Positions 25,725-59,925 of a DNA stretch of 64,000 nt are shown in pieces (the first letter of the stretch is position 1; each line of letters opens with the position of its first letter). Below the pieces are notes generated by a model, which saw only the letters and a program-made list of their open reading frames with translations, did no database searches and had not been told where the DNA came from. The stretch covers positions 2,730 through 66,729 of the forward strand of contig CASDOR010000001.1 in NCBI GenBank assembly GCA_949282135.1. The letters are read 5' to 3'. Origin of the DNA: an uncultured Christensenella sp. GTDB lineage: Bacteria > Bacillota > Clostridia > Christensenellales > UBA1242. Both the position numbers and the translations under genes were made by a program.

Positions 25725-25873
25725 TTTATTCTATGGATGAGTTGTCATAACTTAATCAATATATTCCTTTATTTTAGCGAAGATTGTTATTTACGACCGG
25801 TCGGTCGAAACAGTACAAATAATTGAAATAAAAAGATTTGTTTGTTTGAAATTTAATACAGTTAAGCTAATAA

Positions 25874-25910
25874 AAATATGAAACTAAGACAATGGTTTCA
25901 TATTTTTTTG
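25874..25910 (+). terminator. Intrinsic terminator after the GGGtGRT operon
   Basis: AAAAATATGAAAC/GTTTCATATTTTT stem with T-run. Confidence 0.65.
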
Positions 25911-26358
25911 TTTATGCAAAGTGGTGATAGTAGCAATTTGATGTTAATTAAACGAAAATAAATTTAAACAAACTTACAAAAAAAAGAAAAGGGGAGTTTT
26001 TAAAAAGTTTATATTAAAAAGAATTTTATTTGAGTTTTAAGGTTTTTATTCGAGTAAATTTTTTGTAAGAAAGCTAATTGTTTTTTATTTGCTGCTAAAA
26101 AACTTTAAAGCTCACGATTTTCTTTAAAATAAATATAATTACAAAGTTTAGGGTTTACGATTTAGGATGGATTTTTTGAAAAAAACTACAAAAACTTTTA
26201 GAAAAAAATGTTAAAAATTTTTTAAAATATCGCTTATTTGTTTTGGCTTTTGAAATGTATATGATATACTACTTACGTATTATTATGTGGTTATCAAAAT
26301 TGCTTAGTTTTTACAAATATTTTTAGGATGAAAAGGTCATAATACTAAGGAGGAATAA

Positions 26359-29300
26359 ATGAACAACGATACACCAAGAAATAATGGGAATAAAAATCCT
26401 AATCCAGTAAAAAACAGCGTTCCAAATATGCCTAGGGGAAATATGCCTAGACAAGGTCAGGTTCCGCCACCAAACGGTAGAAGGGCTGTCCCAAGGCCTA
26501 TGCCTTCAAATGTTAATCGTGTTCCAAGTCCTAATGGGGTTCCTCGTCAAAATATTAGAGGACCTATAGGCCCACAAGTTCCTCAGAATAGAGTACAAAG
26601 GTCACAAGCGCCTATAAGGCCGCAGACTCCTCCAGTTCAAAACAGACCAAGACCTACCGCTCAAAATTTAAATAGACAGATGCCTCCAAGAGCAAATGGT
26701 ATGCCTCCTCAAAATGCAAATATTAGACCTCAAGTTTTAAATAGACAAAATATTAACAATGTTCCTCCTGTTCAAGCTGCTAATAACGTTCCTCCAAGAG
26801 CTGCTAATCCTAACATGCCACGTGCGGATGTTTTTGAAAACTCAAAGCAAGTCGTTTCGCCTCAAATTTTAACCACAAATAACATGAGTGGGGCTAATTT
26901 AAATGCGGAGAGCAAGCAAAGAACTGATAACATTACACAAAATTCAGTGAATACACAAGAAAGTGTAAATCTTCCACCTAGAAAGGAAGAGGCAACTTTA
27001 CAAGCTAAAGAAGTCTTAGAAAATGAGAGAGTAAATAGTTCTAGCGAGCCAGTTGCGTCTGAGACTATAGTTTCTAACAGTGATGAGCAAAATATAGAGG
27101 CATATAGTGAAGAAAAATTAGAAAATGTTGCCTCTCAAGAAGAAAATGCAGAAAATGACAAGAATGAAGTATATGCGGAAAGTGAGGATGCTGTAGATTC
27201 AGAAATAGAAGAAGAAAGCCAAAGTAATGAGTCTAATGAGAGAAGTGATGAAACTAGTGCGGTAGACACTAGTAGTGCACCAGCTGAAGTTGTTGAGTTT
27301 TCCTCTGAAAAATCTAAAAAAGAGAGAAGAATAAAAAATCAAAAGAATAAAGGTAGAAGTAGAAAAAAAGTAATCGGCATACTTGTTGCGGTTTTTGTAG
27401 GAGTGATTGCACTTGCCGGTTTATTATACGGATTATCTTTAGGAAATAGAACATATAGGATTTCATTTGTAACAGGTCCTTTTGAAGAAATGGAGCCTTT
27501 GACGTTTAAAGATGGAGAATTTCCAAGTGTTAGTGATTTAGATGACATTATGTCGCTTGATGAAGAGCCAAAGCCTTTAGTTGAGTTTACTGGTTGGTAT
27601 TTAGATAAAGACAGAACTATAGAGTATAGACCTAAGGCACTTCATGAAGATTTAACTTTGTATGCTGGTTATGAGCTTGGAACAGTTACGACAGAATTTT
27701 ATATGATAAATGAATATGATGAAGATGGATCATATATCTATTTGAGTGAGGTTGAAACTGAGTATTATACGGGTGAGATTGACTTTTCTTCGCTTGTTGA
27801 ATCCATAACGAGCTTAGATAGTATTTATTACATAGCCGCACCAAATGTTATTGGTTTTGATCCGGTGAATTTTAACACACAAGGTACAAAATCTATAACG
27901 ATAGACGAATATACTAGTTTTCTTGAAAATTATTTTACCATTTCAACTTTTACTCGTATGGATGATGGGAGTTATTCAGTTTACGGAGTAGAAAGTAATA
28001 TTCCTACTCCTAACAAGGATGCAACATTCTATGTGGAGTTTGCACCAAATGACGTTTCTCTTATTTTTAACTCTAATAAAAGTAGTTTGAAAGATTATTA
28101 TGATAGGGTTGGAGAAGGGAGTGAAGATTTTGTAGATAGCACAACCACGACAACTGTTAAGTATGGAGAAGAGTATATTTTGCCATCTTATGCAACAATT
28201 TCAGGTGGTGTCTTTGGAGAATATCCAGAGTATCACAGTCCTTATGGATGGAGCATTGATCCAGACATGCCTATTGAAGAGGGTAATCAAAACTTAATTT
28301 ATGAAGAAAGTGACACTATAAAAATAGATAAGGATTTTTTAAATAATCAAACATCTATTGAACTTTTTGCTCTTTGGATTGAAGGGATGACTCCTCTTGT
28401 GATTTATACTGAACTTGATGATGGCGGTCCTATGCTTGAGACTTCTATTTCTGTAGGACTTAGTAGACCTCTTGAAGACTGGGCGTTTGATTTTATGGAT
28501 GATTTAAACAAAGAGGGTTATGCTCTTTTAGGGTTCAATACAGAAAGCGATTTGTCAGGTGAAGTGGTGTCTTTTGAGGATAGTATTAATGGAAGTGTAA
28601 ATACTCCAGGCTATGACGAAGAGAGGGGCGCGATTGTCCTTTATGCTGTTTATAAAAAGATAGTCAATGAAACAATGTTTTATGTTTATGATGATGTGAT
28701 TGATAGAGCACAAATTGATGAGCTTTCATTAAACATTAGCAATTTTAATATTAATTTAAATCTTGGGCATGAAAAATACGTTTATAATGGTGAGATGGTG
28801 TTGACCGTGCATAAGACAGGTAATGTCATTGATTATATAACCATTTCTAATTTGCTCGAGGGGGCAAGCTTTACTTTGCCTAATTTTTTACGCGAAAACT
28901 ATACTTTAGCAGGCTACCAAAATGCTACCAGTAATAAAAGCGTTAGAACAAACGAAACATTTACTATTGAAAGTAGAGATATAGATGGAACTTCAAATGT
29001 CATACTAAATATGATTTGGCAAGGAGACGATTATGTTTTTGTAGTAAATAACTACGAAGGAGAGGATGGTGTATGGCAAAATAGAGAAATAAGTGTTCCT
29101 TATGGTTCAACTTTAAGATTTGTAAGTTCTACCAGTAATTATCCAGACAATGCAACAACTGTAAGCATACAAATTTATAATGAGTCAACTGGACAAATGG
29201 TAACAGGGGGCAATTTTTCCTTTGTTAGGACGGGTTATGATTTTGTTAATTGGCATAAATATGATGGAGAAAATGTGGGTGACGCAATTGATAGTTCTTT

Positions 29301-50300: not shown

Positions 50301-53300
50301 AATTATAATTTCTAATAATACAGCAAGAAATAGCGGTGGTGGTATTTATACCTATAATATAAATCAAAATAATAGTTATAGTTATGAATTGTATGACAAT
50401 GTTAATATTTCTAACAATACTGCTTTAAACGGTGGCGGAATATACGTAAATTCAATACTTGACATTATTGAAGCGACAATTACAGAAAACACTGCGGGTT
50501 TGCAAGGCAATGATACACAAAATGGGTTTGGTGGAGCATTATATGTCGGCGGTAGTGCAGTATTGACACTTGAAAAGGCAAATATTAGTGGCAATTTCTC
50601 AACACACGTAGCAAGCGGAGATATTAAAACTAATAGTTCTATTGAAGGAGTAATTTATAACAATTTCGCGGGAATTTATTTATCATCTAGTGTAAGTAGA
50701 ACACTAAGAATTTCTAATGAAAGTACTATTCGTGATATTGTATACTTAGTACAAGATGCAACAATATATATTACTGACAGAGCAACAAATGATATGAAGA
50801 ATAGTGACGATTATTCTATTCCATTGTATCTTGAGTCAAGTGTAGGCTTTGGTGAGTATATTTTAGTTGGCGAATACGATAATGAATTGGATGCTGACAT
50901 TGAGAAATTTATTGGCGAAGATATGGTCTTTACTAAACGAGGAGCTAACATTTATGCTACTCAATCAAGCGTATATAATGCGACAACTGGCAAATATTAC
51001 GCTTCAATAAAAGATGCAGTCAATCAATCTCCTGATGGTCAAAAGGTTTTACTTGTTCTTGTTAATACTGATCAAGTTATAAACGAAGATACAATGGTTA
51101 CAATTCCAGCAAATAAAGATATTACAATTATTGGTGAAAGTAGTGAAGATGAAAGTATCATTACAAGAAAAATTGTACGTGAACAGGATGAAGACGGAAA
51201 TAATGCTTACTTAGGTTACTTATTTATTGTTTATGGAAGACTATCATTTAACATAAGTAGCGAAGATGAGGGTGAGTTCGCTGATTTAGATTACGACATT
51301 TCAAATAGACCTATTATTGTTGATGGTGGCAAAACAAATGGTGGATATGTAGAGAATGCAAATTCACTTATATACATTGGTGGAGTTGGTACAAGTGTAT
51401 ATGAGGAAGGAAAAGATGGTCTAGTAGTAATTAACAGCAATGCCGAATTTGTAAATAATAAGGCAAGCAATACAACTGCGTTGTCAATTACAAACCCAAC
51501 AGATGGGATTACTATAGATAGGGTTGCGAATCCAAGTTATGGCGGTGCGGTATATGTAAATGGTGGGTCATTCATAATGAATGGTGGTAGAATCCGTGGT
51601 AACGAGGCTACACGTGGTGGTGCAATTTATATAGCAACTGGTGAGGCAAGAATAAACTCTGGTTTAATAGGTTCTAAGAACAGTGTAGAAGACAAAACTC
51701 AGTACAACAGTGCAGAAGATGGTGGTGCAATTTATGTGTTTGGTGGAATTTGTTATGTTGGTAGAGACGTGCTTGTAAACGAAGACGAAAGAGCTAATAT
51801 AAATGGAAATGAGGCAACACGTAATGGCGGTGGAATTTATATTTCCTCATATGGTAACCTTTATATGCAATATGGAATTGTAAATTACAATAAAGCTATA
51901 AATGGTGGTGGCTTATATGTAGCGTCAGTCTCAGATAACATTCAAAATCTTGAGGTGTCAGGTGTTATAGTAAATGGGTCTATTTTGTCAAATAACACAG
52001 CAAGCTTAAGTGGTGGCGGTGTTTATGTTGAATCTGGGCTTTTTGAAACTTACATGTTTGAGACAATTTATACTACTATACAAAATAATACGGCTTCAGA
52101 AAATGGTGGTGGAGTGTATGTTGGTAGTACTGGATTTATAAAATTAACTGAGACTGAAATTGTTTCAAATACAGCTTCAGAAAATGGTGGGGGAATTTAC
52201 TACAATGGTATGGACCATTCTTCATCTCAATTCATAGCTTCCTACGGAGATAGTTTTGAAGATATGAATGCAGGCGAATATATCTCTTCATTAACTAGTG
52301 ACAATAGAATTAGTACTTTAAATGGAAGCTTTATTGGAGTAAATGCTTTAGGTGACGAAGGTGGGAATAGTGCTGAAAATGGTGGAAATATTTATCTAGC
52401 AGCAGGCTCTTTGCATGTTATATCTTCGACTATTTCAAATGGTACATCTTCTATTGGTGCAGGTATATATGCTGGAGGCAGTAGCGACTTAAGAGTCTAT
52501 AATGGAAGTATTTCAAATAACATTTCTACTGATAATGGTGCTGGACTATATGTTACAAACTTTAGTACAAGAATATATGGGGCAACTATCACAAATAATG
52601 AGTCAGCAAATTATGGTGGTGGTATTTACTTTAATAGCGGAGCACTTGATTTACGTGCTTACGAAGCTACACTTACGCAAGTATCTTCAAATAGGGCGGA
52701 AAGGCACGGTGCAGGTATTTATCTTGGTATGCTAAGTGGAGCAACTAATTACTATGTGACTATTAAAGATACAACAATATCAAGTAATACTTCAGTAAAT
52801 GGTTTAGGTGGTGGTATTTATGAAAATGGGGCAATACTTGAACTTGTAGATGAAGTCACAATAGAGAATAACAACGCGATAAGTGATGGGCAAGGATTAT
52901 ATCACGCAACTGGTGTACTTGCTATTTACGGAAGCAACCGAATAGATAACAAAGGTAGTATTGCAGTTAATGCCAATATGGATGATAATTTGCCTGATGG
53001 ACAAAGTTTTGTTAATCTTAAAGAATTTACTAACTTATTTATTTTAGCAGGTGACGTTGAAAATATAGAGGATGAAATCTACCTAGCAACTAGACTTGCA
53101 TATATTACTGTTGTTGATGACGATGATACAAATAGTATTTATTCATCAGGACTTGGCACAGCTACTCTAAAAATTAATTTAGATAGTCAAACAGGTACTA
53201 ATTTCTCTGTTGGAGGTCAAGTTATTAGGTTTATGAATCCTAATAACAAAGACGAGGTACTAAGTTACTTTAATTTACCTATAAGTTCAGGCATGCTACT

Positions 53301-56300
53301 TTGGTATTCACTTAGAAGTGATAATACAAATTGGTTTGTTCTTGAGTATCAGTACTTCCAAGAAATAGAAGATGGAGGAAATATTGTTAGAGTTAGCGCC
53401 ACCTTTGAAGACGCATTAGCTCATGTGACTGATGGTAATGTAATTATAGTCAATATGAACTCTGCTAATGACTATACTCTTGTTCTTGACGATACAATAG
53501 AAATAGGGACAACAGACGAAAGCGGTATGGTGACAAACATGAATGTGACAATAACTGCGAGATATCTTGGAACGCGTATTGTAAGAGGCAGTGAGTTTAC
53601 TGGAGCAATGTTTAGAGTGCAAGCAGGTTCCTCACTCTTTATAGGCTATAATACTGAGTTTAATTATGGTAGTGATTTTACAAGTACTAGCTCTACACTA
53701 ACTCTCACAGGGAACAGTGATAGTTCTTCAACTATTATCCAAAACTATGGAACATTTACTTTGGGGGCTTGTGGTAGTCTTACAGGAGAAAACTCTACAA
53801 GTAACGGAAGCGCTATAGCAAACTTAGGGGAAGGAATTGTAAACATTGAAGGTGGCTCAATTTATAGTAATGTTTCTAGAATAGAAGAAATTGAGGGCTC
53901 TGAAGAGGCAGATGCATTAGGTGGAAATGGTGGTGCAATATTTGTGAGTAGAGGCACTACGCTTAATATTTCAGGCGGATATATTTATGGCAATAGTGCG
54001 GTAAATGGTGGTGCAATTTACCTGTCAAATGGTGCTACTCTTAATGTCACAGGTGGCCAGATAGGTATTAACACACAAGATCAAGCTGCAGGTAATTTAG
54101 CTGAAAATGGTGGTGCGATCTATTCCAATGGTGCAAATGTTAATATTACAGGTGGACAAATTTCCTATAATACAGCATCAGTAAATGGTGGTGGAATTTA
54201 TGCCACATATTATGTGACTTCTTCAGCAGAAGGGAATGATATGTACGTTTATTCAAATGTTATTCTAGGGGAAGAAAACGAAGATAGTATTAAAAATATA
54301 AATATAAGTTTCAACTCTTCTTCTCAAAATGGCGGTGGTATATACATTTTAAGCAGAATGGAAAACAGCGAAGAAACGTCAATAACAATTTATTCTCAAA
54401 CAAGGATTAGAGATAATAGTGCTTTAAACGGTGCTGGAGTATATATTGATGGTGAATATATTAATGATGATATAGATTATACAAACTCAGTAGCTATTAG
54501 AGGCGGAATTATTGATGGAAATACGGCGACAAATGCCGGTGGTGGAATTTATGCACGAAATTCAATAATAAATATGTTTTATGGCAAAATAGGGGATGTG
54601 ACATTCTATAACAGTGCAAGCCTAGGCGGTGGTTTATATCTAGAAAATTCTAATGCAGAGATACTTTCTTCTGGGTTTAATACTACAACTGATATCTCTG
54701 GTAATAGAGCAGTTATCAAAGATGGTGAAAACGGTAATGGTGGTGGTATATTTGTTGATAACCATTCTAGAGTGATTATAAATAGTGCAAATGTAAATAT
54801 AGAGGATAACGCTGCAGAAAATAATGGCGGTGGTATCTACATGTATCAATACGATATTGGAGACGAGGATGATGAAGATTATGGTAGTGTAGGAACTGTC
54901 GAGATTATAGAAGGTTTTATTGCTGATAATGTGGCAAATGGCGAAGGTGATGGTATATTTGTTAACGGAGATGGAAAACTTATTCTTCAAAGGAAGGATG
55001 ACCGTTCCGCGTTACTTGCAGAGGGGCTTAGGATTGTTGATGAAATATACTTGAACCACCTCTTGTTAAAAGATAAAACAGAAGAAAATGATAAACAAGT
55101 ATCAAGGATAAGAGTAAATGCTGGGTTTGACGGAAGCCTTAATTCACAGGTTAATATTAAGACCCCTTATCCAGCAACGGATATAGACATAATTGTTGGT
55201 TACTACTTTGTACAAGGGCAAGCAATAGAAGATGCTTACTTAGTTCCAGATATATTTATAGGTGTAGATGAAAATGCACAAGAATATATCTTCGTTATGG
55301 GAGTTACAAATACTGGGGGCAAGTATGAAATACTAACTGGCGAAAGAAATGTTGCTAGAGTGACAGGTAACATTACAAGATACTATTCTAGGATTAATGA
55401 TGCAGTCGTTACGTCTCAACTTGGAACTTTAAATAGTATCTACTTGCTAAAAGATTTTGAGTTTAGCGAAGGTGGTGTAATTCATTCTATTAGCGGTTTA
55501 GATGATCAAAATCAGATGATAATTGAGTTCTACGCAGGCATTTATGAAAATAATGAAGTTAGAGAAGATACATTATCACGTAGAACAATTACAAGAACTG
55601 GTACTGGTACTTTATTCTCGATTGGTAATTATGCGAGAGTAAGTTTTAATAACATTGATTTTGAGAGTAATTTGTCAAGAGGAAATGCTTTAATAGACTC
55701 AAGAGGAAATGAAATTGCTTTACGTAATGTAGATTTTAGCAATATTGCTATTTTAAATGGTGCGGTTCTTTTGATTAGTGGTGCAAGTGTCATTAATATA
55801 GATAATGTAAAATTTAATGGTTGTATTTCAAAAGAATACTCAATATTAAGGCTAGAAAATAGTGCTACAGGGAATGGAAAAATTAATAATCTAACAATTG
55901 ATGGCACAACTGACGATTTCTCAGTTAAGAATGGCGCAATTAATATTGATGATTGCTCTTTGATTGAAATGTCTAATGTGGAGATTAACAACATTAAATC
56001 TTCAGGAAATGGCGCAGGTTTTTATATTACAGATTCGGCAGTAACTATTGATACTGTGACATTGAGTAATAACGAAGCAAGTATAAACGGCGGTGCTATA
56101 TATGTTATGGGGGGAAGTAAAGATACAGCCTTATCTCTCACAAGTGCTACATTGACAAACAATTCTGCAGGCTCAAATGGTGGTGCAATATACGTAAATA
56201 ATGCGGATTTAAATTTTGGTTCTTCTACTATAAATAACGCAAATGCAACCAATGGTGGTGGAATGTATATTACGTCAACCGCTACAGTAAATGTTATAGG

Positions 56301-59300
56301 TAATTCAACTATAATGAACGCAACAGCAAGTAATAATGGTGGTGCGGTATACTTAAGTGGTGTACTTAATGTAGATAACAATTTACAACTTACAAGTAAC
56401 CACGCGAAAAACGGAGCAGGTTTATATAGCGATAGTAATAAGTTGAATGTCGCAGGTTCACTAGTGATTTCAGGTAACGAGGCAACAAGCGGTGGAGGTA
56501 TATATTATATTGGTACAGAAGAGCTATCACTTAATCAAACTACAAGCATTGTTAGCAATACTGCAACTAATGGTGGTGGAATTTATGTTGATAATACCTC
56601 AATCTCACTTTCAGGAGCTTCATCAGGGAATAAGATGATAATCGGCGGAAGTGGAGCAGGCAATACTGCAACTAGTGCTGGTGGTGGTATTTATCTGAAT
56701 GGTTCTTCTTATTTAAGAGTTGAAAATGCGAACGTTGAAGTCTCTTATAATAGTGCAGCTCGTGGCGGTGGTATTTACTATAACTACAGCTATGTTGATA
56801 GTGTTTATAACGCAAGCGAAACGGCACAAAAAGAAAAATATGATAATATTTCAATCTCTAACTTGACTATTTCCAATAATACAGCGACCTCAAATGGTGG
56901 TGGTATATATATAAATATAACAAAGCAAAGAGTTACATTAACACTTTTCACTGTTAATATTAATGATAATAAGGCAAGTGTAGGTGGTGGAGGTATTTAT
57001 CTTGGTAATGGCAAAACTGTTATTAAATATTCAAGTCGTGTAAACACTAATAGCGCTCAAGAAGGTGCGGGTATCTATTTACTTGGAGAAACAACTCTAG
57101 GTATTCAAAACACTGAGATAAGTAACAATGGAAACATTGCGACTACGACTAATTTTGGCGGTGGAATTTTTGTAAATAATGCAGTATTGCAACTTCTACA
57201 ATCAGAGACATTGTCAAATGGTGTAAATACAACAAGCATCACTTCAAATAAAGCATCAAATGGTGCTGGTATATGTGTAACAAATAATGGTACGATTGAA
57301 ATGAGTAGCGGCGGAGACTCGAACATTACTGAGATCTCTGGAAACACTGCCAGCGGAAATGGTTCTAGTACTGGCTTTGGCGGAGGAATTTATATAAACA
57401 ATTCTGTAGTAAAGGTTAACTCAGGTAGAATTTCAGGCAATAAAGCAGTTGTAGGTGGAGGTGTATATATTACTTCTTATGGAAGTGCATTGTTTGAATT
57501 AAATGGTGGAAGTGTTTATTCAAATAGAGCATCAGATGGCGCAGGTTTATATTTAATTAGTAAAAATTCAACTCACATTGTAAACGCAACTATTAAGGGA
57601 AGTGTAACAGGAAATACTGCAACCTCAAGAGGGGGAGGAATTACAATGAGGGGTAGTGCTTGTACACTTACTTTAAATAGTAACTTATCAGGAAATAGTA
57701 GTAACGACCAGGCTGGTGGCTTATATTACGAAGGAGGTACAATAACTTCTAGTAATACAACAATTACTATAAGAGAAAACACTGCAAAGAAAGGCGGAGG
57801 TGTTGTATTTGCTAAATCTCCAACATTTGGTAGCAAAAAGAGTGTCGTAATTACTGAAAATACAGCAACAGAACAAGGCGGTGGTGTGTACATCCCGGTA
57901 GGTGGGGTAACTATAACAAATATTACTATTACTTCTAACCATGCAAAATATGGTGGAGGTCTTGCAAATGTAGGTTCTAATTTGATTTTAAATAATGTTA
58001 AGATTACTGATAACAAAAATCAAAGTAGTTCTGAAAATCCTCCTCCTATATTGCAAGGCGGTGGTGTGTACAATTCTGGTTCATTAGTAATTAATGGTAA
58101 TACGCAAATTACTGGAAATATAGCAGAAAATGGTGGAGGCTTATACTCTACTGGGACAACAACCCTAAGTTATGGTACTATTTCTGGAAATACTGCAGCA
58201 ACAAATGGTGGTGGCGTGTATGTTGCTTCCGGCCAGTTCTCAATGAGAAATTCAGGATCAAACCTTGCAGTCGTTGGTCTCTCAACTGCGGCAAATACAG
58301 CAAGTAGTGCTTCTGGAACTTATAGTAACAAAGCTGCGAATGGCGGTGGTGTATATGTAAATGGTGGTATATTTAATTTTGTAAGTGGACGAATCTATTA
58401 CAATTATGCAGTTTCGAATGGTGGAGGACTCTTTATTGCTAGCGGTGGAAATATGGGAGAAGGATCTAATGCTCAAATGACAGATGCCTCGCTTGTGTCT
58501 TACAACTATGCGACGAATGGTGGAGGTGTTTATACCTCAAAAGATACAATGGTAGGTGGGGTAGTTTCAAATAATACTGCAACAACAAATGGTGGTGGAA
58601 TTTACTTCAGTGTGGCAATGACTAAACAACTTCTTCTTAATGTTAATAATAATATGGCTGGAACCGGTGCTGGTGTGTATCTCCAAACAAGTGCTAGTAG
58701 TATAAGAGGAAGTATTTCAAATAATACTGCTTCAATACGTGGTGCTGGTGTGTATGTAAGTACAGGTACAGTTACTATTTATGCAAAAGTCGATGCTAAT
58801 AAAATTTCAATAGATAATAAAGAAGGCGCTGGTATTTATATTAATAATGCAACAGTTACAATATCAGGTGATGTTACAAATAACACTTTAAATCGTGGTC
58901 GTGGCGCCGGAGTGTATATTAAGTCAGGCACTCTTACTATAACAAGCGTAATAAGTGGCAATGGAGGGGCAACTAAAGGTGGTGGGCTTTATATGGAGAG
59001 TGGAAATGTTACTTTACGAGGGACAATAAAAGGTAATAATGTTACTGCAACTGCTCTCGATACTAGTGCTACACCTTCTGTAGTGGGTGCTGGAGTTTAT
59101 ATTAATGATGGAACTTTTTACATTGGAATTATAGATTATTGGCCATTTCTTATTATATCCCGAGGCAAAATATTTAATAATTTAGTTATTAATAATGGAT
59201 GTACTAATCTTAATGCATATTCAATTGAATTTATTGAAACAAATCAAGATCCTTTACCACAAGAGTATCGACATAGAAGTTATATAACTGGGATTTATCA

Positions 59301-59925
59301 GGCTGCCGGCAATACAGTTTTAAGACTAGGCAGTGTTTCAGAAAGAAAAAATCCAGTTAATATTGGTGGAACTAATTACTATAATATTGCTTATTATTTA
59401 AAGACTGGTTCGTGGTCATACTCAACACTTGCAAGCATTTCTGGCGACTTGTATTTTGAAAAGTATACTGAATTTTATACTTCTAATATTAGCGATAATG
59501 GTATAAATGCAGACTTTGTTAATTACTATCCAAGAGACTACCTGATTAATTGGAGTAGAAATCATGCTTATGTATTACGCGCAACCTGTACTCATAGTTA
59601 TACAACAGGCGCGCTTTGGTGGAAAAAACGCCACTATTGTAGGACTGCTTATTCAAGTAAGAGTAACCCAATAACGACTATTATATGCCAAGGTAATATA
59701 GAAGATACTACAAACATGATTGTTATGGGGCATGAAAAAAGAAGTGGAAATCATAGTGGAGGCTGGTGGAATAATCTTTGGGGTAATTCATCATCAAAGG
59801 ATCATGATTACTATTTCTCATACTCGCCAACTATAGCAAAATGGGCTGCAGGAGGTTCAATTAGAGATCATTATGAGAATAGATATATTAATGTAAAAGC
59901 TAAGTCGACAGATACAATTAACTAG
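26359..59925 (+). CDS. Giant (11,188 aa) type II membrane-anchored surface protein: InlB B-repeats (Flg_new), PMP-like beta-helix repeats and BspA LRR
   Basis: Single uninterrupted ORF with AAGGAGG RBS; one TM at ~27370-27445; about 45 FxGW...LYAxW repeats by eye; many NxA..GGAIY repeats; IGxxAF LRR block at ~47390-48600. Confidence 0.92.
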   Translation: MNNDTPRNNGNKNPNPVKNSVPNMPRGNMPRQGQVPPPNGRRAVPRPMPSNVNRVPSPNGVPRQNIRGPIGPQVPQNRVQRSQAPIRPQTPPVQNRPRPTAQNLNRQMPPRANGMPPQNANIRPQVLNRQNINNVPPVQAANNVPPRAANPNMPRADVFENSKQVVSPQILTTNNMSGANLNAESKQRTDNITQNSVNTQESVNLPPRKEEATLQAKEVLENERVNSSSEPVASETIVSNSDEQNIEAYSEEKLENVASQEENAENDKNEVYAESEDAVDSEIEEESQSNESNERSDETSAVDTSSAPAEVVEFSSEKSKKERRIKNQKNKGRSRKKVIGILVAVFVGVIALAGLLYGLSLGNRTYRISFVTGPFEEMEPLTFKDGEFPSVSDLDDIMSLDEEPKPLVEFTGWYLDKDRTIEYRPKALHEDLTLYAGYELGTVTTEFYMINEYDEDGSYIYLSEVETEYYTGEIDFSSLVESITSLDSIYYIAAPNVIGFDPVNFNTQGTKSITIDEYTSFLENYFTISTFTRMDDGSYSVYGVESNIPTPNKDATFYVEFAPNDVSLIFNSNKSSLKDYYDRVGEGSEDFVDSTTTTTVKYGEEYILPSYATISGGVFGEYPEYHSPYGWSIDPDMPIEEGNQNLIYEESDTIKIDKDFLNNQTSIELFALWIEGMTPLVIYTELDDGGPMLETSISVGLSRPLEDWAFDFMDDLNKEGYALLGFNTESDLSGEVVSFEDSINGSVNTPGYDEERGAIVLYAVYKKIVNETMFYVYDDVIDRAQIDELSLNISNFNINLNLGHEKYVYNGEMVLTVHKTGNVIDYITISNLLEGASFTLPNFLRENYTLAGYQNATSNKSVRTNETFTIESRDIDGTSNVILNMIWQGDDYVFVVNNYEGEDGVWQNREISVPYGSTLRFVSSTSNYPDNATTVSIQIYNESTGQMVTGGNFSFVRTGYDFVNWHKYDGENVGDAIDSSFLSSFKVNREFNQISAKWTKKEYTVTFKLAGGNITSGSGLEDVGGNIVIENIEYGDTQSLISNLIERSGYYLSGWALSDVIGAPVVYEYDETEFVVENNTTLFAVWQEAYTITLYLDASRQNYATIAVDRDNKFTINGDELGGYTFTRFNASDIGVGQEIVIVENEDEIIESANTEYFVKGVETDYPFNTSTSFFAMWFGVEFLNGEDENNVVDDNAPNGFYVSYGSTFTLPQNTFTPSVYYEFDNWLYNGSPCLSYFTVGTENGLSMSSGVVGSTLSFTASWALKEIRIDLYSDETSDGSFTSEYVSGNEFIISSKNENLPFKVSHEIDYILDSNDDTSRLAYFINENNEFVITIPDITDESVKQESGEFYYELFTVWKKTLTLNANTGTSSRTQRYYAGVTYDKETYLENVVPVDVLSEVSFTLPTVGGESGVDFINPHMDFVYWAEQSNGSGETYLGEQDIVLTEDKTLYAIWVETQYTLQIVDETGINETLSFSGLTYGKSGILSNIFSEVNDLTTTDLDEINGYYVNLKRFVYTYNDNPSRYFGFNDLFELLNTDENGAFYEEDLEDDNTIILECVWEEKTYELVVNLDGGRLRDGVTYDEYDIASNTFIYEVKYSEINSSATGLELLYDGLIKSGYRFNGFAVEDEEFSQVTSISGRYYYSLIKDADALEAKNGDSITVVWQEIFTLTFDGNGGSVSNFETESEDVTHDEAHFVIPSDISASYPQTAQFMGWWYTNSVDGENGILANKNKLLQNGDSVIITRDIMNTYGDIVTNTVTLYAVWQVNIRFRTETIVLGEQVSVMGYYTPESEDMIEMQGNYYYFEVPFFVGQEVRASDLEGYMFVLATLKGERIDYFETSGWIYNENIVQNFTVTSPIILVAEWVTTTFRIYLKDYNGSDFNIEGTLVEVYAEVSTQDGSLDPDKAFSDFMQANNFSQTRPNLFGYTFIGWRLTSGSNPVASSEADIFSSTNHYSPLTRSLDLYASYRAENVRVVYDTGNDNAETGQDGIIVDYQVPYGSQYKVRSDIEYTLDYHNLSGWTVEGEAGTITYDAGQNIPVTTGVERDISGDTVTYTLTLRANWTRVTKTIQISLDGGEFDNNGENDNLEPFYVVYEGDGEYTPEMGSSYVLNYTTEAGVLYVTVLVGEGYKFKLPTREYMLRDSYQIGNYMTFSGSQFVAGNDYDSVDGNAVILNTNWLEELTIRVYANRNGEYDDSEPIIIDNLLYNDSIRFYVEEDVAYIGSYNSQNMVPITFERDGYFLSGYSSVSDPESTTIEINYDLTIQSTLSFNEENFDLDLNSRRYVDLYCQWEGELVSVALKTNDTDGEIIETDIEVRYGERVNISDYFLGDEYAEEGYTFSHFVDKVGTSYDSENYFFTPLPGNADEEDVVIDNDTQDVRDRFILTAVWEGKEYNLTINFAETTFTGRFNGQDYVNATSITIPVQYDSVDPEPVDLSSFSGANFVHTIDQNRERKLYIASGFTSSVDGDVVTNSFTMPACDVVLTLRWISENFTLIFDVDGSLIAGEDGVVYTGAEFNEADLGENMMLDESGNLILLNNKIGDNIDFSLLPAATLEGNNYSFSYLIDYYLALGNRYDGETRNYMTASIFNLNIYNGEGIISNIDKMWSDTYDSFVYYFSLDWGGLQYIVHYENQLPSTSNKYEANATGVLVGTCADETHAYGVISTLSSGFDLTGWSQTGWSTESNVELQTDENTIEFVLYEEENEDGSIDTVYGPKPKAYNLVTSGEDGQIVTLYPVWEQNEYSVVFVDELGNNSLSGENLKFKYDSILKLSSLYTGEIEKKTFSEYYYNFIGWKLANSSRVFSMEDEILFSTSAGGILTSADLGAEEGVTFNASWEEEEYTIRLKLGEGKYSSRTNDFEYIYDATTNTRDIVYQIPYSIIENGVDLKEYMGLDDSLISKNDFTFAGWSLLADTSRLDFFKGEKVEYVVSDVETTLKDKNFEFVFYAMYNEYLVTLDGNGGTKLSSLGDSYSHEDSVNNYTYNWVLEDNAFYLYTYLNASFDLPEVLLNGFEKDRYHILNTADSNTIIVTENIVKSISWEGNYRLIVLDKDGEGSINLNNFSFSDSTLLGAEYRIVEISSPDEFLSHPGKLYVYVYNEEETLDNKFVFASSYNEGETYFEKVSDSGHIYIAARNGDTISDISEITLTTERNFLGWVDENANYSTKNLIVDVSDDEVIYLRASFDSPYVYFELNGGIYQNENYIKPLQDEKPENGVYTVTLPSDYVGPAGVGPFKFGYTFIGWSDEYMTYDEIMGEENSQTVLDNLYKHNDEYSITDGRSKTLFAIWQPREITFVFDAKTSEGDSTSLEGLPTASVNARYDENLVLLDRTNEVVSKWTYSGHAFGHWIIDGVEYAQGETLSVSSLCEGYESVPTQIEIYSVWIKDSITIRINLGNDNTARYIGDEEGYELIRESGNTYLILETTLSSGEQYTFLDLGNMYRFGMSAVSYSDSNGTPYQSGSKVTISESMIEEINGEDVITFTVNWANAQAYIRNFYGENTNVHKFYDTLENAFLDLSAEELNSRDSIEVVILRGSTFYFSNTININAKNVTISFDNSATNNVVFRRDSSFSGNIFAVGQGASLTFSELSLYTITFDGAERVGDSFISVNGGILELNNVIFVDNISNNNGGAIRLSNNATLTANNVTFENNAVSSENASAYGGAIYIEGNSNVSLTSASFTNNSVLGLGARGGAIYQNGGILSISDSMFTENSAESSTSSNSFGGAIYTTLTEVSISGDLEITSENKVLTSVFLNNTASSGGAIYIGSSANNSIAGVEFQSNTATNGNGGTIYLSSASTKISSCNFTGSVSSQNGGTIYASEESESVLTINMVTISDSVATNGSGGGIYAECSIDSNYLIISDSSANADTGLGGGIYLGCLSSVISNTAVFKYILLDNNSSFNGGGIYINENIEVTIDTTDVWEVIGLDEFGRDKYAWVRYYPEISNNIASSGSGIYYNSSLNSTINEISIFGNSPSGARESYNENNRGGGIYFAKGLLTISSSQIYNNTSYYGGGIYLHGDNSEEDGYLASLTLNDTYISDDGIINYAVNEDGEEYISNYTQSYAGNTAYYGAGLYIARRSNVEFTSGKIMGGYAYTSAATIYNEGRVNLGDVMMGQNSSNDRVTIYNMGQFIISGNALFASGERIYIETIGEGNVENNTFRYIEITNENYLNDYRIINIENGVEVEDEAQANTGITLMFDEENFAIGKDIVKFINETAFNNYVANNETSIMFGIENTQEFLLTQEGEPRFSLTINYSKHNFFFRDVSLDQIDFMNYDETLTFTYNSSFSEADLENINSILSDSRTGYTQIGWVCYISKNDEGELFYGGELNQNTLEIYDYLNDDESNPYRDSFAWVNTLFEEGFVYGHYDMYLYAVWEPNSYDIEYKYDKDDYLFNGEALTNDNLDTVTLPAPDGLGYLSEIRYNKTLKLPTADEINGYKVVNAETGVLFGWEYEFVNNSGNNANMYPEQIRFMDESKKEEQVIDLKFVDGYYTFTYEETLGGVINYRLEQVYRPDNYVFSHYLINNISYEGGKSFTINANTIDTNSSIVITLVFERMSTNVVINLGKGEYLFTSGLDSSLNEDSSTTDGEAVIILDGNVGEEMNLPTDRDSTQYVVNDGNSTYYDYYYVYNPGYALIGYASTEDASEVEFYADMPFVVTPSASGNVYLYAIWQEAVCYVESGIIVNNKTFDLYFSSLEDAVSYANASLGNDTIVMIESVYLSSPIEITSSITITSEDNGVVIGLSDDFSTSDPMFTIVNSTNQSERVSVVFGSSEYTTVTENTPSLTLTTCNEEGIKNTNRTVSLLVIENGNSVVINANIILTSSNLSTSSGNAGEYGGAITVSGELEINGATFTSNSALNGGAILVKTNANVTINGGYFGLEGEGNENMASNGGAIYQSGGKLTINGAIFRNNNATNGGAIYYKDGEFIIPDSEKEINTGDVLFASNIANNTGGAIYVEELTSQSSLIFENVSFDKNTASSGGAIYSLGYLNLVNCSFSTNSATNGGAIFFGRDLSLAQGLTESELMNLQQLIIQGGRFTNNSAYSLGGAIYTTYTTINISRNSDSTSNVVFTGNSAQSSSSSGNVYGGAVYLNASSGNFANVDFSYNYTATQTNNRDTLGGALYVSGGSLRIDSSTFTSNGVMESGSRTRTQNGGAIYILSSNLEIYSSSFSQNKATKNGGAIFASGTAMALSDTMTNVGELIFNENTAGGAGGALYIINNSSLVINTKTSEENLSLTNNSAGTYGGAIYFGSTAIQSSTIANCTISLNSASNGTNIYVNSGTLSLSEITMDSGIEEDVLIYIANLGRLDLNGTEILGIIYVDSTAESSFGRLSMSGTSYVKDIYLSQYSYVSIAGTTLSSSRYASGETTNIIVFGAREELINVTNLNNAKDLVVFTYANYAAECEDYFVLGGLYTQKFDASISLEDYASSRLGGYTIYRYTTSLKVVKRADSIQIDPNGGVLTYRGEEHKEAFIVEVGEEYTTLSFLSEIEGFLMGYTLSGSYRSGNEIYTADSEIPILFTTITAQWTKKDFIVASVSSVLSLGSYNESITMGGSQVKGFNTIGRQYYTFDHYYLAYLDVNQELQERPDITFYPNSVEKVNFSFTYLTEDIYKAIDASGLSASNYANPTVFLVSVFTRNTVTVNINGNGGVAQEKEDALHNRQVSEDGTTVTYTYYQDELSLSLTYFMNDFGMTGHAIRDLNLTVYNDVEVIASNPRQGINTYPSIENATRVEIICNWYEVIAYVSRTENTKETITYFGKEEDSDTLEDILNRLMNFIRSDDEIVFVVENLTLEAPITINERVTISANNNVVFRRSLALRDSMLIVGSKGNVTFADSENIITFNAETSYPIAYSTIEVENGGILTLGTSVEVINSNTSANGAGIHSRGTLTIDGATISNNKTSSYGGGIYSCGYLIIVSGTISNNSATRGGGVYVESETITSGSSSISRGGTFTMSGGNITYNDAQFGAGLYFIGRGSETSTITGGSISYGNANYSTPATAPQNAKYGGGIYLSNNCGKLEIGGSATINNNRVDYGGGIYCEGNNETNAEFNVLLISGGEITSNTAYSYGGGICIGDMAQSMNKHVVEMTAGEIYNNFATSGAGVSVFRGRLTVSGENVVIENNALLGDSGYGTNLYIYSSSIDNNGIVDLSSGTIGSEDNVGTIYIDAGSLGNGKLNLSGNINIYSTMVLVNNNLTGENTLIDIVGELDENIRIITLEPTLFPDADEKEVEYPLIRFANSLDASDEKFIMTDNTDYRLKVVNQYIVLTPAYFTLTFDANGGELSTEADLNFIIENEMWIFDVHFGDSLNDIISNIVASIDNRKFLFWSISGGEYDGTRLDTDSTMPYDDILVIANWSDPYYYLTIDFNDTKNPLSVSAEFDEEGLGSNGVYYEEYSQVTLEVFIDSGNTTYGKDAINLVANLLSRQGYELTSFSPSQLLDGHIKYSVDGTGFMMPEDNVILYAIWTPTNYTITYNSSMQINGIVQEISEEVSLDEAVLLDEAFTIDGYTLTGWSYGENEFNFGDRVTNLPKVLGIDIEGEESVNITLTANWTRDSYIIKFDANREEYSVSSPEDVEDITALVNESYELPGEVFYADGYILVGFSLDKNTHYTDSENIFELSSNVTNLARSGEVTLYGVWRPNNYIIELNDSNGSSIVIDTPYTYDEVGLLPRMYAEDDLSQSNILLGLTPRQNYYFAGWTETRNSTEVMYLDGAEVFNLTNQNRFTLYAVWLEYNVVVNSNDGNNDSFGLLADENKRVTLNVSDLELFDNPGYAPVGISFTSSGSGDVYEFVEGVVTFTLPNRVEGRDFNVYVVWERVNYTVEFVLNSEVISEITASIGEEITPYTSSGVVGYSVMEESITLDITLENFVLTRDLISKIRNYQDISSGIIRLYAVMDTTYTITYDLNSNGHQVLLNGEVITNDDLNVSNEFSSTDNVTLKFDNYEIADANYESTTSRYAYFLGWSLTSGSRTPDYDSNSTTVQFGSDVTLYAVWEYYTNPFYFEYVENENGLTIVGFSSLGINNFRGTTLILPKHNYTLSGSLLLEGEKVTQIGQFNSSDATNGVEILDLGLVDGLEDILDLAFVNFSELTSVLGVKGDITIGNGAFGAPSITEIGFNNLDSSKYVLDEMGNIYEVRGGELSLHTLLATNTQNINYTVSNEVNGMTVSSISTYAMYNAGFVSLTVEDNITVIEMGAFEGITDSLVSLTLSFIGESLNSNTNLGYVFNGANNAPTSMKEVIVTSLNSVPEGAFKDFSYIERVYFENATITTIGAEAFYNCTNLKLLGEENEIDLQRVVTIGDRAFYNCKSLPESITFTSARTIGNEAFSQTNITFVELTNNVVSLGISESGDSNTAFMNNENLLGARVYSEIALKAVIKNTGIVKGLTDNDSYIYTNMEFYNEIERLCSGNSPKDYLEYNIIVEDRFELFDPNNNSRGVYNSLQEAINNAESNYTILIKGNYVLTATIEINKPVNIVAGASSNSSNTAITLSRHESLTDYAFVISSIGVKIGGDFNLRDYNALPLHLAGNGVESLSLIYVDKGELTLGSQLEVYNNYSNLGAVVRLSADGGEVNVEGGKYYDNVVSGSGVETANGGVFYLDEESRLNITGGEFYNNSAVRGGVIYSRGQSIINIDATQSSEIKMYNNSATNGGVLYIASTILDEEYANYIGNASIFNNLLTNVSSSGGAVYIANGMLSIGNEARIYSNYAVNGGGVYVGNGILAIYNGVIGGNATGNRAVNGGGVYIGDNGIIRLSSSQAEVSYNSASSGANIYFASTYNVSGKVSILSSGSIIGGNKTSATSSNPSNISSLKGGGIFIKSGNLEIKDEVVVTNNVAGFGGGIYIEGGMLTLRNNRNTSNSYGIISNSALNGGGIYVKNGRVDVLASAILTNTSSQNGGGIYLEDGEVKVYDTSKNSSIISGNTSTLNGGGIYCVGGELNVYVVNGNVSQISSNSAYDGAGIYLGGGETNLRGIIISNNTARNSGGGIYTYNINQNNSYSYELYDNVNISNNTALNGGGIYVNSILDIIEATITENTAGLQGNDTQNGFGGALYVGGSAVLTLEKANISGNFSTHVASGDIKTNSSIEGVIYNNFAGIYLSSSVSRTLRISNESTIRDIVYLVQDATIYITDRATNDMKNSDDYSIPLYLESSVGFGEYILVGEYDNELDADIEKFIGEDMVFTKRGANIYATQSSVYNATTGKYYASIKDAVNQSPDGQKVLLVLVNTDQVINEDTMVTIPANKDITIIGESSEDESIITRKIVREQDEDGNNAYLGYLFIVYGRLSFNISSEDEGEFADLDYDISNRPIIVDGGKTNGGYVENANSLIYIGGVGTSVYEEGKDGLVVINSNAEFVNNKASNTTALSITNPTDGITIDRVANPSYGGAVYVNGGSFIMNGGRIRGNEATRGGAIYIATGEARINSGLIGSKNSVEDKTQYNSAEDGGAIYVFGGICYVGRDVLVNEDERANINGNEATRNGGGIYISSYGNLYMQYGIVNYNKAINGGGLYVASVSDNIQNLEVSGVIVNGSILSNNTASLSGGGVYVESGLFETYMFETIYTTIQNNTASENGGGVYVGSTGFIKLTETEIVSNTASENGGGIYYNGMDHSSSQFIASYGDSFEDMNAGEYISSLTSDNRISTLNGSFIGVNALGDEGGNSAENGGNIYLAAGSLHVISSTISNGTSSIGAGIYAGGSSDLRVYNGSISNNISTDNGAGLYVTNFSTRIYGATITNNESANYGGGIYFNSGALDLRAYEATLTQVSSNRAERHGAGIYLGMLSGATNYYVTIKDTTISSNTSVNGLGGGIYENGAILELVDEVTIENNNAISDGQGLYHATGVLAIYGSNRIDNKGSIAVNANMDDNLPDGQSFVNLKEFTNLFILAGDVENIEDEIYLATRLAYITVVDDDDTNSIYSSGLGTATLKINLDSQTGTNFSVGGQVIRFMNPNNKDEVLSYFNLPISSGMLLWYSLRSDNTNWFVLEYQYFQEIEDGGNIVRVSATFEDALAHVTDGNVIIVNMNSANDYTLVLDDTIEIGTTDESGMVTNMNVTITARYLGTRIVRGSEFTGAMFRVQAGSSLFIGYNTEFNYGSDFTSTSSTLTLTGNSDSSSTIIQNYGTFTLGACGSLTGENSTSNGSAIANLGEGIVNIEGGSIYSNVSRIEEIEGSEEADALGGNGGAIFVSRGTTLNISGGYIYGNSAVNGGAIYLSNGATLNVTGGQIGINTQDQAAGNLAENGGAIYSNGANVNITGGQISYNTASVNGGGIYATYYVTSSAEGNDMYVYSNVILGEENEDSIKNINISFNSSSQNGGGIYILSRMENSEETSITIYSQTRIRDNSALNGAGVYIDGEYINDDIDYTNSVAIRGGIIDGNTATNAGGGIYARNSIINMFYGKIGDVTFYNSASLGGGLYLENSNAEILSSGFNTTTDISGNRAVIKDGENGNGGGIFVDNHSRVIINSANVNIEDNAAENNGGGIYMYQYDIGDEDDEDYGSVGTVEIIEGFIADNVANGEGDGIFVNGDGKLILQRKDDRSALLAEGLRIVDEIYLNHLLLKDKTEENDKQVSRIRVNAGFDGSLNSQVNIKTPYPATDIDIIVGYYFVQGQAIEDAYLVPDIFIGVDENAQEYIFVMGVTNTGGKYEILTGERNVARVTGNITRYYSRINDAVVTSQLGTLNSIYLLKDFEFSEGGVIHSISGLDDQNQMIIEFYAGIYENNEVREDTLSRRTITRTGTGTLFSIGNYARVSFNNIDFESNLSRGNALIDSRGNEIALRNVDFSNIAILNGAVLLISGASVINIDNVKFNGCISKEYSILRLENSATGNGKINNLTIDGTTDDFSVKNGAINIDDCSLIEMSNVEINNIKSSGNGAGFYITDSAVTIDTVTLSNNEASINGGAIYVMGGSKDTALSLTSATLTNNSAGSNGGAIYVNNADLNFGSSTINNANATNGGGMYITSTATVNVIGNSTIMNATASNNGGAVYLSGVLNVDNNLQLTSNHAKNGAGLYSDSNKLNVAGSLVISGNEATSGGGIYYIGTEELSLNQTTSIVSNTATNGGGIYVDNTSISLSGASSGNKMIIGGSGAGNTATSAGGGIYLNGSSYLRVENANVEVSYNSAARGGGIYYNYSYVDSVYNASETAQKEKYDNISISNLTISNNTATSNGGGIYINITKQRVTLTLFTVNINDNKASVGGGGIYLGNGKTVIKYSSRVNTNSAQEGAGIYLLGETTLGIQNTEISNNGNIATTTNFGGGIFVNNAVLQLLQSETLSNGVNTTSITSNKASNGAGICVTNNGTIEMSSGGDSNITEISGNTASGNGSSTGFGGGIYINNSVVKVNSGRISGNKAVVGGGVYITSYGSALFELNGGSVYSNRASDGAGLYLISKNSTHIVNATIKGSVTGNTATSRGGGITMRGSACTLTLNSNLSGNSSNDQAGGLYYEGGTITSSNTTITIRENTAKKGGGVVFAKSPTFGSKKSVVITENTATEQGGGVYIPVGGVTITNITITSNHAKYGGGLANVGSNLILNNVKITDNKNQSSSENPPPILQGGGVYNSGSLVINGNTQITGNIAENGGGLYSTGTTTLSYGTISGNTAATNGGGVYVASGQFSMRNSGSNLAVVGLSTAANTASSASGTYSNKAANGGGVYVNGGIFNFVSGRIYYNYAVSNGGGLFIASGGNMGEGSNAQMTDASLVSYNYATNGGGVYTSKDTMVGGVVSNNTATTNGGGIYFSVAMTKQLLLNVNNNMAGTGAGVYLQTSASSIRGSISNNTASIRGAGVYVSTGTVTIYAKVDANKISIDNKEGAGIYINNATVTISGDVTNNTLNRGRGAGVYIKSGTLTITSVISGNGGATKGGGLYMESGNVTLRGTIKGNNVTATALDTSATPSVVGAGVYINDGTFYIGIIDYWPFLIISRGKIFNNLVINNGCTNLNAYSIEFIETNQDPLPQEYRHRSYITGIYQAAGNTVLRLGSVSERKNPVNIGGTNYYNIAYYLKTGSWSYSTLASISGDLYFEKYTEFYTSNISDNGINADFVNYYPRDYLINWSRNHAYVLRATCTHSYTTGALWWKKRHYCRTAYSSKSNPITTIICQGNIEDTTNMIVMGHEKRSGNHSGGWWNNLWGNSSSKDHDYYFSYSPTIAKWAAGGSIRDHYENRYINVKAKSTDTIN

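Follow-up and report, generated by a model that had tools for sequence, protein, structure and literature searches.

A 33.6-kb gene of a chicken-gut Christensenella encodes a giant surface protein of a genus-wide family, probably a membrane-tethered adhesin or contact fibre

The window analysed here is a stretch of 64,000 nucleotides (nt) from an uncultured Christensenella sp. (assembly GCA_949282135.1, contig CASDOR010000001.1; C1:2730-66729), whose genome measures 1.248 Mb in 29 contigs and is 97.5% complete. A single open reading frame (ORF) at 26359..59925 on the + strand runs over 11,188 codons (33.6 kb) with zero internal stops under translation table 11. It encodes a protein of 1,217 kDa with an isoelectric point (pI) of 4.2, the ectodomain of which has a net charge of -799. 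The gene and its product are made up of the following parts, given with the amino acids (aa) of the protein.

26359..27369, + strand: low-complexity head, aa 1-337, rich in P, N, Q and R, basic for 200 aa and then acidic, with a K/R cluster at its end
27370..27444, + strand: single transmembrane (TM) helix, aa 338-362, with a Kyte-Doolittle peak of 2.98 and no other strong peak in the protein
27445..36822, + strand: B-repeat stalk, aa 363-3488, about 31 diverged Listeria-Bacteroides repeats (InlB B-type, Flg_new), one every ~100 aa
36823..39114, + strand: beta-helix module 1, aa 3489-4252, capped and right-handed, with Chlam_PMP matches in five stretches (E-value 3.6e-9)
39115..40389, + strand: B-repeat block 2, aa 4253-4677, about four repeats, with end motifs at aa 4377 and 4673, colinear in homologues
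40390..42729, + strand: beta-helix module 2, aa 4678-5457, TIGR01376 POMP_repeat at 91.4 bits against a cut-off of 15
42730..43596, + strand: B-repeat block 3, aa 5458-5746, about three repeats, with motifs at aa 5531 and 5742
43597..45192, + strand: beta-helix module 3, aa 5747-6278, POMP_repeat at 23.1 bits, cap motif read from the sequence
45193..47367, + strand: B-repeat block 4, aa 6279-7003, about eight repeats, from Flg_new and TIGR02543 matches, an internal model and motifs
47368..48651, + strand: BspA-type leucine-rich repeat (LRR) module, aa 7004-7431, PF13306 LRR_5 at 77.1 bits against 27.7, in two stretches
48652..59148, + strand: four consecutive capped beta-helix modules, aa 7432-10930, with Chlam_PMP/POMP matches and recurring cap motifs
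59149..59568, + strand: conserved tip base, aa 10931-11070, defined by an alignment of relatives and ending in ...VNYYPRDYLINWSRNHA
59569..59922, + strand: hypervariable knob, aa 11071-11188, 118 aa, aromatic and Cys-rich

This order of head, TM helix, B-repeats, alternating beta-helices and B-repeats, LRR module, four further beta-helices and tip had been read from the letters alone in an initial annotation of the stretch, and Pfam and NCBIfam matches place the domains in the same way. The stalk of some 30 repeats that it located at 27460-36830 corresponds to the roughly 31 repeats at aa 363-3488. Within the B-repeats, PF09479 (Flg_new) exceeded its cut-off of 27 bits with scores of 35.5 and 33.4, and TIGR02543 scored 24.7 bits against a cut-off of 20.95. 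The motif xYAxW, which marks the repeat ends, occurs 33 times, mostly 85-117 aa apart. Our repeat counts are based on the spacing of this motif, because the repeats are too diverged for self-detection: an internal hidden Markov model (HMM) recovered 14 repeats in the stalk and four in B-repeat block 4, an iterated HMM started from one Flg_new repeat fell to four matches, and an HMM made from 17 repeats added one further repeat. The first ~600 aa of the stalk after the TM helix are more degenerate and weakly repeat-like. Over the whole protein the B-repeats total about 45, and the seven capped beta-helix modules together account for 5,575 aa.

The beta-helix modules are marked by adhesin-type repeats. 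In module 1, PF02415 (Chlam_PMP) reached 36.4 bits against a cut-off of 20.6 over its five stretches, and GGxIY-type motifs were counted 83 times in the whole protein. The last four modules begin at approximately aa 7432, 8200, 8995 and 9660. An AlphaFold2 (AF2) model of aa 3290-4290, made with five homologues from the genus, had a predicted local distance difference test score (pLDDT) of 80.3 and a predicted template modelling score (pTM) of 0.72; it consists of two small all-beta domains, which are the last two repeats of the stalk, followed by a long beta-helix. The Foldseek matches of this model in the PDB were mostly right-handed parallel beta-helices and included the GH87 glucanase 6k0q, Ag43, the K1 capsule lyase 7w1c, phage tailspikes, pectate lyases and PfbA. 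These matches support the fold class only, because their scores are weak (E-values of at least 1e-3, TM-scores of 0.2-0.3). A sequence search of the PDB with pieces of the B-repeats and beta-helices returned no relative. The LRR module matched the PDB entries 4fs7 (E-value 1e-10), deposited as 'Uncharacterized protein', and 4gt6 (E-value 1e-9), deposited as 'Cell surface protein'. Three genes upstream of the giant gene, at 21934-23781 on the + strand, lies the gene of a 615-aa protein with BspA-type LRR_5 repeats (55 bits), a second surface protein of ordinary size that shares the LRR family with the giant's LRR module.

The N-terminal part suggests how the protein is held at the cell. The head terminates in KERRIKNQKNKGRSRKK, directly before the hydrophobic segment, and the flanks of the TM helix carry a charge of about +10 on the N side versus about +1 on the C side. 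From this asymmetry an N-in, C-out orientation is predicted, with aa 1-337 in the cytoplasm. Besides the TM helix, one 19-residue window exceeds the hydrophobicity threshold, at aa 9796 within a beta-helix module. The low-complexity head, the K/R cluster, the one TM helix and a first repeat of the form 'Y-x-V-x-F-V' recur in all five full-length homologues that were compared. An N-terminal anchor as the sole attachment, with no LPXTG motif, S-layer homology (SLH) domain or cleavable signal, had been proposed before, and the searches for other anchors agree with it. Neither an SLH domain, nor a cell-wall-binding domain, nor an autotransporter barrel was found in Pfam scans of the whole protein, and no lipobox is present in the first 400 aa. 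An LPXTG tail is missing, the protein having three internal LPxT/S-like strings that we attribute to chance and a C-terminus that is not hydrophobic; the 97.5%-complete genome lacks sortase (PF04203), for which control genomes were positive. Where an autotransporter has its translocator, the protein ends in a soluble aromatic knob. Judging by its sequence, the giant protein is probably a single-pass type-II membrane protein with an N-terminal signal anchor.

Several lines of evidence bear on the integrity of so large a frame. Its GC content (~34%) and GC skew are the same as those of the flanks. Tandem Repeats Finder detected no tandem DNA repeat in the gene, and the sole DNA repeats are matches of 30-67 nt with 60-80% identity at the codons of the N-x-A-x-x-N-G-G-G-I-Y motif, in agreement with the earlier remark that the repeats are diverged at the DNA level. 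A collapse of repeats during assembly is therefore unlikely. At least 10 studies of chicken-gut, bird and other gut metagenomes contain the sequence of the gene, and Logan contigs from other studies tile it colinearly at ~96-98% identity and lengths of up to 18.4 kb. In run X5 the contigs on the gene measure 5.2, 18.4, 5.4 and 2.8 kb, in run X21 18.1 and 11.9 kb, and read depth across the gene resembles that of the flanks.

Strain variation within the frame points in the same direction. All nine indel events listed inside the ORF in strain contigs keep the frame, being multiples of 3 or compensated (+6, -6, +3, -3, one -1/-2 pair, three compensated +1/-1 pairs with members 3-7 nt apart, and one replacement of 108 by 111 nt), whereas indels in the flanking spacers show no such frame-like constraint. 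Of the listed strain single-nucleotide polymorphisms, 42 of 75 are synonymous, a class that would make up 22% if changes fell in this ORF at random. The 108-nt replacement concerns the B-repeat stalk at 35376-35485, which in the strain of run X5 is exchanged in frame for 111 unrelated letters; it adds a small mosaic patch to the one in the knob described below.

The gene is preceded by an AT-rich spacer of 634 bp, in which two features of gene expression were read.

26347..26353, + strand: ribosome-binding site AAGGAGG, 5 nt 5' of the ATG at 26359, read from the sequence
26243..26270, + strand: promoter-like TTGGCT-16-TATACT, extended by TG and lying ~90 nt ahead of the start, a consensus match not above shuffled expectation

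An Rfam search of this spacer gave no match, and none of the repeats considered there as those of an invertible promoter was convincing. At 25872-25907, 13 bp form a perfect hairpin, AAAAATATGAAAC...GTTTCATATTTTT, with a T run behind it. This hairpin probably terminates the GGGtGRT gene and, being AT-rich, escaped a GC-based terminator scan. Elsewhere in the window, depth over the segment 9228-12911 was about zero for the strains in runs X9 and X25, with the flanks covered, and this segment is apparently a strain-variable island.

The gene has relatives throughout the genus. Of 28 species genomes from the genus, 25 matched a 697-aa query comprising the TM helix and the first repeats. The query matched nothing in 150 further genomes from the order, which represent 96 genera and include five members of the same family. 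Open frames of 10,677-11,788 aa occur in at least 13 genomes of the genus, among them frames of 11,173 aa in G022 and 10,903 aa in G005, and nine genomes contain two such genes; shorter homologous frames sit at contig ends. Five full-length homologues are colinear over ~9,500 aa at 25-45% identity. The frames keep to this narrow range of lengths at identities of only 30-50%. The closest complete orthologue, from genome G015, lies on two contigs that overlap by 25 aa and is ~11,069 aa long when these are joined; it is colinear with the present protein at 40-59% identity, but past aa 9500 the value is 30-43%, and within the head 29%. Compared with G018, dN/dS is 0.06-0.13 for the TM helix and first repeats, ~0.33 for the head and 0.24-0.36 for the tip, values that are rough since dS is near saturation. 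Synteny is kept and supports orthology: the gene is followed by recR, a VTT/DedA-family gene and a DUF1846 gene both here and in G009, and by recR and the VTT/DedA-family gene in G018 and G015, while upstream of it, here as in G022, lie the GGGtGRT and NifU-like genes.

According to these comparisons the gene is real and intact, old, maintained and unfragmented in its relatives. The initial annotation had judged it free of frameshifts and an old gene rather than a recent expansion or an assembly collapse, and both judgements hold: the frame is open throughout behind a ribosome-binding site, its indels preserve the frame, synonymous changes are in excess, and intact colinear orthologues and paralogues of 10,700-11,800 aa exist. 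A chimeric assembly and a fragmentation in close relatives, which it had named as grounds for rejection, are contradicted by the colinear contigs of independent studies and by the full-length frames. It had also proposed to survey gene size as a fraction of the genome in relatives, and here the giant gene amounts to ~3% of the DNA.

The C-termini of 24 family genes fall into an aromatic/Cys-rich type, found in the giant gene and ten other genes of the genus, and three related helical-hydrophobic types that have the motif W-K-E/D-x-R in common. All nine genomes in which both tips could be read contain one tip of each type, and we therefore distinguish an 'a' paralogue, to which the present gene belongs, from a 'b' paralogue. 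The gene is thus a member of a genus-wide conserved pair of ~11,000-aa paralogues in genomes of about 1 Mb. In its own genome the 'b' paralogue is represented by its first 863 codons (C9:66-2129, - strand), which end at a contig edge and encode a fragment with 35% identity to the present protein and 43-47% to the 'b' protein of G015; the remainder, ~31 kb of the genome, is probably missing from the bin. The four largest ORFs of this genome make up 8.1% of the assembly and the ORFs of at least 1,900 aa 11%, and the true share of giant ORFs is higher because the 'b' paralogue is truncated. Among the other giant ORFs is one of 9,264 aa (C9:88537-116328, - strand) with 27 GGxIY-type motifs and a signal-like N-terminal start of its own; further ones, on C29 and C26, measure 7,768, 5,642 and 2,864 aa. 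As for the tips of the 'b' type, they were read in the relatives G004, G005, G007, G009, G012, G013, G015, G019, G021, G022, G024, G041 and G043 (L019-L022, L028-L044). Their helical-hydrophobic C-terminal domains are covered by no Pfam family, and one of the types is preceded by four CxxC zinc-ribbon motifs with a weak DnaJ_CXXCXGXG match. Such a domain could be a membrane-active or re-anchoring module.

The tip of the present protein, 258 aa in full (aa 10931-11188), had initially been called unique. It is indeed an orphan: no Pfam or NCBIfam family matches it, the last ~270 aa have two real relatives in 1.84 billion representative proteins, both fragments from members of the genus, a set of 5.8 billion proteins yielded the identical two, and metagenome contigs of the Joint Genome Institute (JGI) contained none. 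Within the genus it is not unique, since about ten relatives share it, and the last 118 aa are hypervariable. The 'a'-type base ends in the consensus ...VNYYP-x-x-YL-x-W-x-x-NH, after which ~118 aa vary strongly. Between P0001 and P0002, identity is 98% over the preceding 200 aa and ~38% past the 'NH' breakpoint, with the Cys positions retained. In the strains of runs X5 and X9, the segment 59567-59957, which begins at aa 11070 and extends slightly beyond the stop codon, is swapped for 349 other letters. The knob is thus exchanged between strains at a fixed breakpoint. Searches of the whole genome with the tip DNA (blastn) and the tip protein (tblastn) revealed no second copy. Two sources of the variation were considered and rejected, namely a diversity-generating retroelement, for which the genome holds no template repeat, and a store of silent cassettes, for which it holds no second copy. 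Allelic exchange by recombination is the likeliest origin.

The gene belongs to the giant adhesin-like proteins of gut Clostridia that have already been reported. Proteins of 10,000-30,000 aa with Listeria-Bacteroides repeats and LRRs, with a suggested role in adhesion, were noted in this class (West-Roberts et al., 2023, bioRxiv 10.1101/2023.11.21.568195), and the present protein agrees with them in bacterial class, gut habitat, size range, repeat families and proposed adhesion to other cells. The passage of the preprint concerned is a single paragraph without anatomy and draws its examples from mammalian gut metagenomes, whereas the present host is a ~1.2-Mb chicken-gut bacterium. Relative to that passage, our analysis adds the low-complexity, predicted cytoplasmic head and the signal anchor behind it, a set of seven capped POMP modules, the genus-wide paralogue pair, the conservation of length and the hypervariable knob. 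The one paper returned by a full-text search gives no account of the genus-wide distribution, the 'a'/'b' pair, the tight length conservation or the fixed-breakpoint knob. A parallel is provided by Giant1-5 of Apilactobacillus kunkeei (Pedersen et al., 2026, PMC12863079), extracellular proteins of 3,000-8,000 aa to which a 1.5-Mb genome devotes ~6%. Both cases have several giant extracellular proteins filling a sizeable share of a small genome, but the repeat families differ, there is no sequence relationship and the present protein is larger. Giant1-4 have an N-terminal beta-solenoid, while the variable part of the present protein is a C-terminal knob; the genes of Giant1-5 are clustered, whereas the giant genes of the present genome are dispersed.

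With the chlamydial Pmps and the AIDA/Ag43 passengers (TIGR01376/PF02415; Ag43, 7ko9) the protein shares GGAI-type repeats and the right-handed beta-helix as an adhesin rod. In contrast to these, it has no autotransporter beta-barrel, its clostridial host has no outer membrane, and seven helices stand in one chain behind an N-terminal TM anchor. Surface proteins of Listeria, Bacteroides and Tannerella likewise contain Flg_new (PF09479) and BspA-type LRR (PF13306) domains, both of which exceed the curated cut-offs here, but those proteins have hundreds to a few thousand residues and are anchored by GW modules, LPXTG motifs or the type IX secretion system. The ~45 B-repeats of the present protein are, unlike theirs, ~100 aa each and strongly diverged. 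Megadalton fibres of Gram-positive bacteria with a single TM tether, as here, are also known from the staphylococci in the fibronectin-binding Ebh/Embp (~1.1 MDa). Ebh, with its cleaved N-terminal signal, is anchored by a C-terminal TM segment and built of helical FIVAR/GA repeats, whereas the present protein is all-beta and N-terminally anchored.

Taking domain content and topology together, we consider it reasonably probable that the gene encodes a membrane-tethered giant fibre, most likely a long-range adhesin or contact fibre. The 337-aa head would be kept in the cytoplasm, the helix at aa 338-362 would act as an uncleaved signal anchor, and the remaining ~10,800 aa would be exported via the general Sec pathway while still tethered to the membrane. 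The proximal stalk of ~31 B-repeats would carry the rest of the chain through and beyond the wall, where seven rigid, capped, right-handed beta-helix rods, interspersed with B-repeat blocks, and the BspA-type LRR module would follow, with the small aromatic/Cys-rich knob at the distal end. Specificity might lie in the distal modules, above all in the 118-aa knob and possibly in the LRR module, and the targets may be host mucus, particles or other microbes.

Some points weigh against this reading. Runs labelled 'METAGENOMIC' RNA-Seq cover genes, spacer and flanks alike at 5-9x, a DNA-like pattern that makes them unusable as evidence of RNA, and no PacBio-labelled run able to span the gene was found. 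The AF2 prediction of the tip, from an alignment of seven sequences, failed (pLDDT 32). The length of the fibre, probably ~0.2-0.3 micrometres if extended, follows from assumed dimensions of the domains, namely ~100 nm for the beta-helices (5,575 aa, with ~27 aa in each rung of ~0.48 nm) and ~160-180 nm for ~45 B-repeats at 3.5-4 nm. Cleavage behind the TM helix, which may release the fibre, is compatible with the sequence. Finally, the beta-helix fold is common to polysaccharide lyases, hydrolases and phage tailspikes, and some modules may be enzymatic.

Among the other explanations, we regard as rather improbable that of a protective or spacing coat, in which the proteins would form a dense, negatively charged, glycocalyx-like brush against phages, host effectors or other cells and length itself would be the selected trait. 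It would account for a length of 10,677-11,788 aa that is held despite 30-40% identity, for the acidic ectodomain (pI 4.2, net charge -799) and for the presence of several giant surface proteins in the genome, where ORFs of at least 1,900 aa reach 11% of the assembly. However, ligand recognition is the more typical role of an LRR module and of a terminal knob that varies between strains, and nothing points to a high copy number or to expression.

It is also unlikely that the protein is a string of tethered enzymes, some or all of the seven beta-helix modules being polysaccharide depolymerases that digest mucin, capsule or dietary glycans from a stalk, with the B-repeats and the LRR module then serving as spacers or binders. 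A reduced genome in a glycan-rich gut habitat would suit such a function, and the top Foldseek matches include the GH87 alpha-1,3-glucanase 6k0q, the K1 capsule lyase 7w1c, phage tailspikes and pectate lyases. The scores of these matches are weak and indicate a generic fold only, however, and a sequence search of the PDB found no relative. Searches of Pfam and NCBIfam gave no match to pectate lyase, GH28, GH87, PL6 or Beta_helix (PF13229) families, and the adhesin-type POMP/Chlam_PMP repeats were the only repeats matched in the helices.

A filament for contact-dependent competition resembling the polymorphic toxins, with the last 118 aa as an exchangeable effector aimed at neighbouring cells, is suggested by the cassette-like replacement of the C-terminus between strains at the fixed, conserved ...NH breakpoint and by the helical-hydrophobic C-termini of the sister paralogue. 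We consider this very unlikely: recR begins 49 nt past the stop codon, as it likewise follows in G018 and G015, with no small immunity-type ORF, and the Pfam search detected neither a known toxin nor a known pre-toxin domain. The genome contains no orphan tip cassettes or second copies either, and an aromatic, Cys-rich knob is more typical of binding domains. Least of all, with a negligible chance, could the gene be an assembly artefact or a decaying pseudogene that is open by chance: although the source is a metagenome bin of 29 contigs, repeat-rich genes misassemble easily and no long reads cover the locus, this is largely excluded and already refuted within reach of short-read data, because tandem DNA repeats were not found, contigs from independent studies are colinear, more than 12 independently assembled genomes have intact colinear homologues, and the variation consists of frame-preserving indels with an excess of synonymous changes.

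The adhesin or contact-fibre reading can be extended, by analogy and at the cost of becoming quite unlikely in its full form, to both paralogues as a dedicated contact apparatus of Clostridia with reduced genomes. The 'a' fibre would then serve as a ruler that presents its strain-specific, cassette-swapped recognition knob ~0.2-0.3 micrometres from the cell, and the 'b' fibre would use its conserved helical-hydrophobic W-K-E/D-x-R end to engage or insert into the membrane of a partner, in an obligate attached lifestyle that might be epibiotic or host-bound. The pair would resemble in this respect the role that has been proposed for giant proteins of Omnitrophota and of bacteria of the candidate phyla radiation (CPR).

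Spending ~3% of the DNA on one gene in genomes of the ~1-Mb type implies that the fibres must give the bacteria something essential. The paralogue pair takes up ~6% of the genome in relatives, and giant ORFs ~11% of the assembly here. Being small and expressible, the 118-aa knob offers a way to the ligand, and it could be used as a strain marker in studies of the chicken-gut microbiome. The family poses the questions of why length stays constant while sequence drifts and of how an ectodomain of 10,800 residues leaves the cell from an N-terminal signal anchor, and it provides a well-conserved case for asking what role giant surface proteins play in gut Clostridia.

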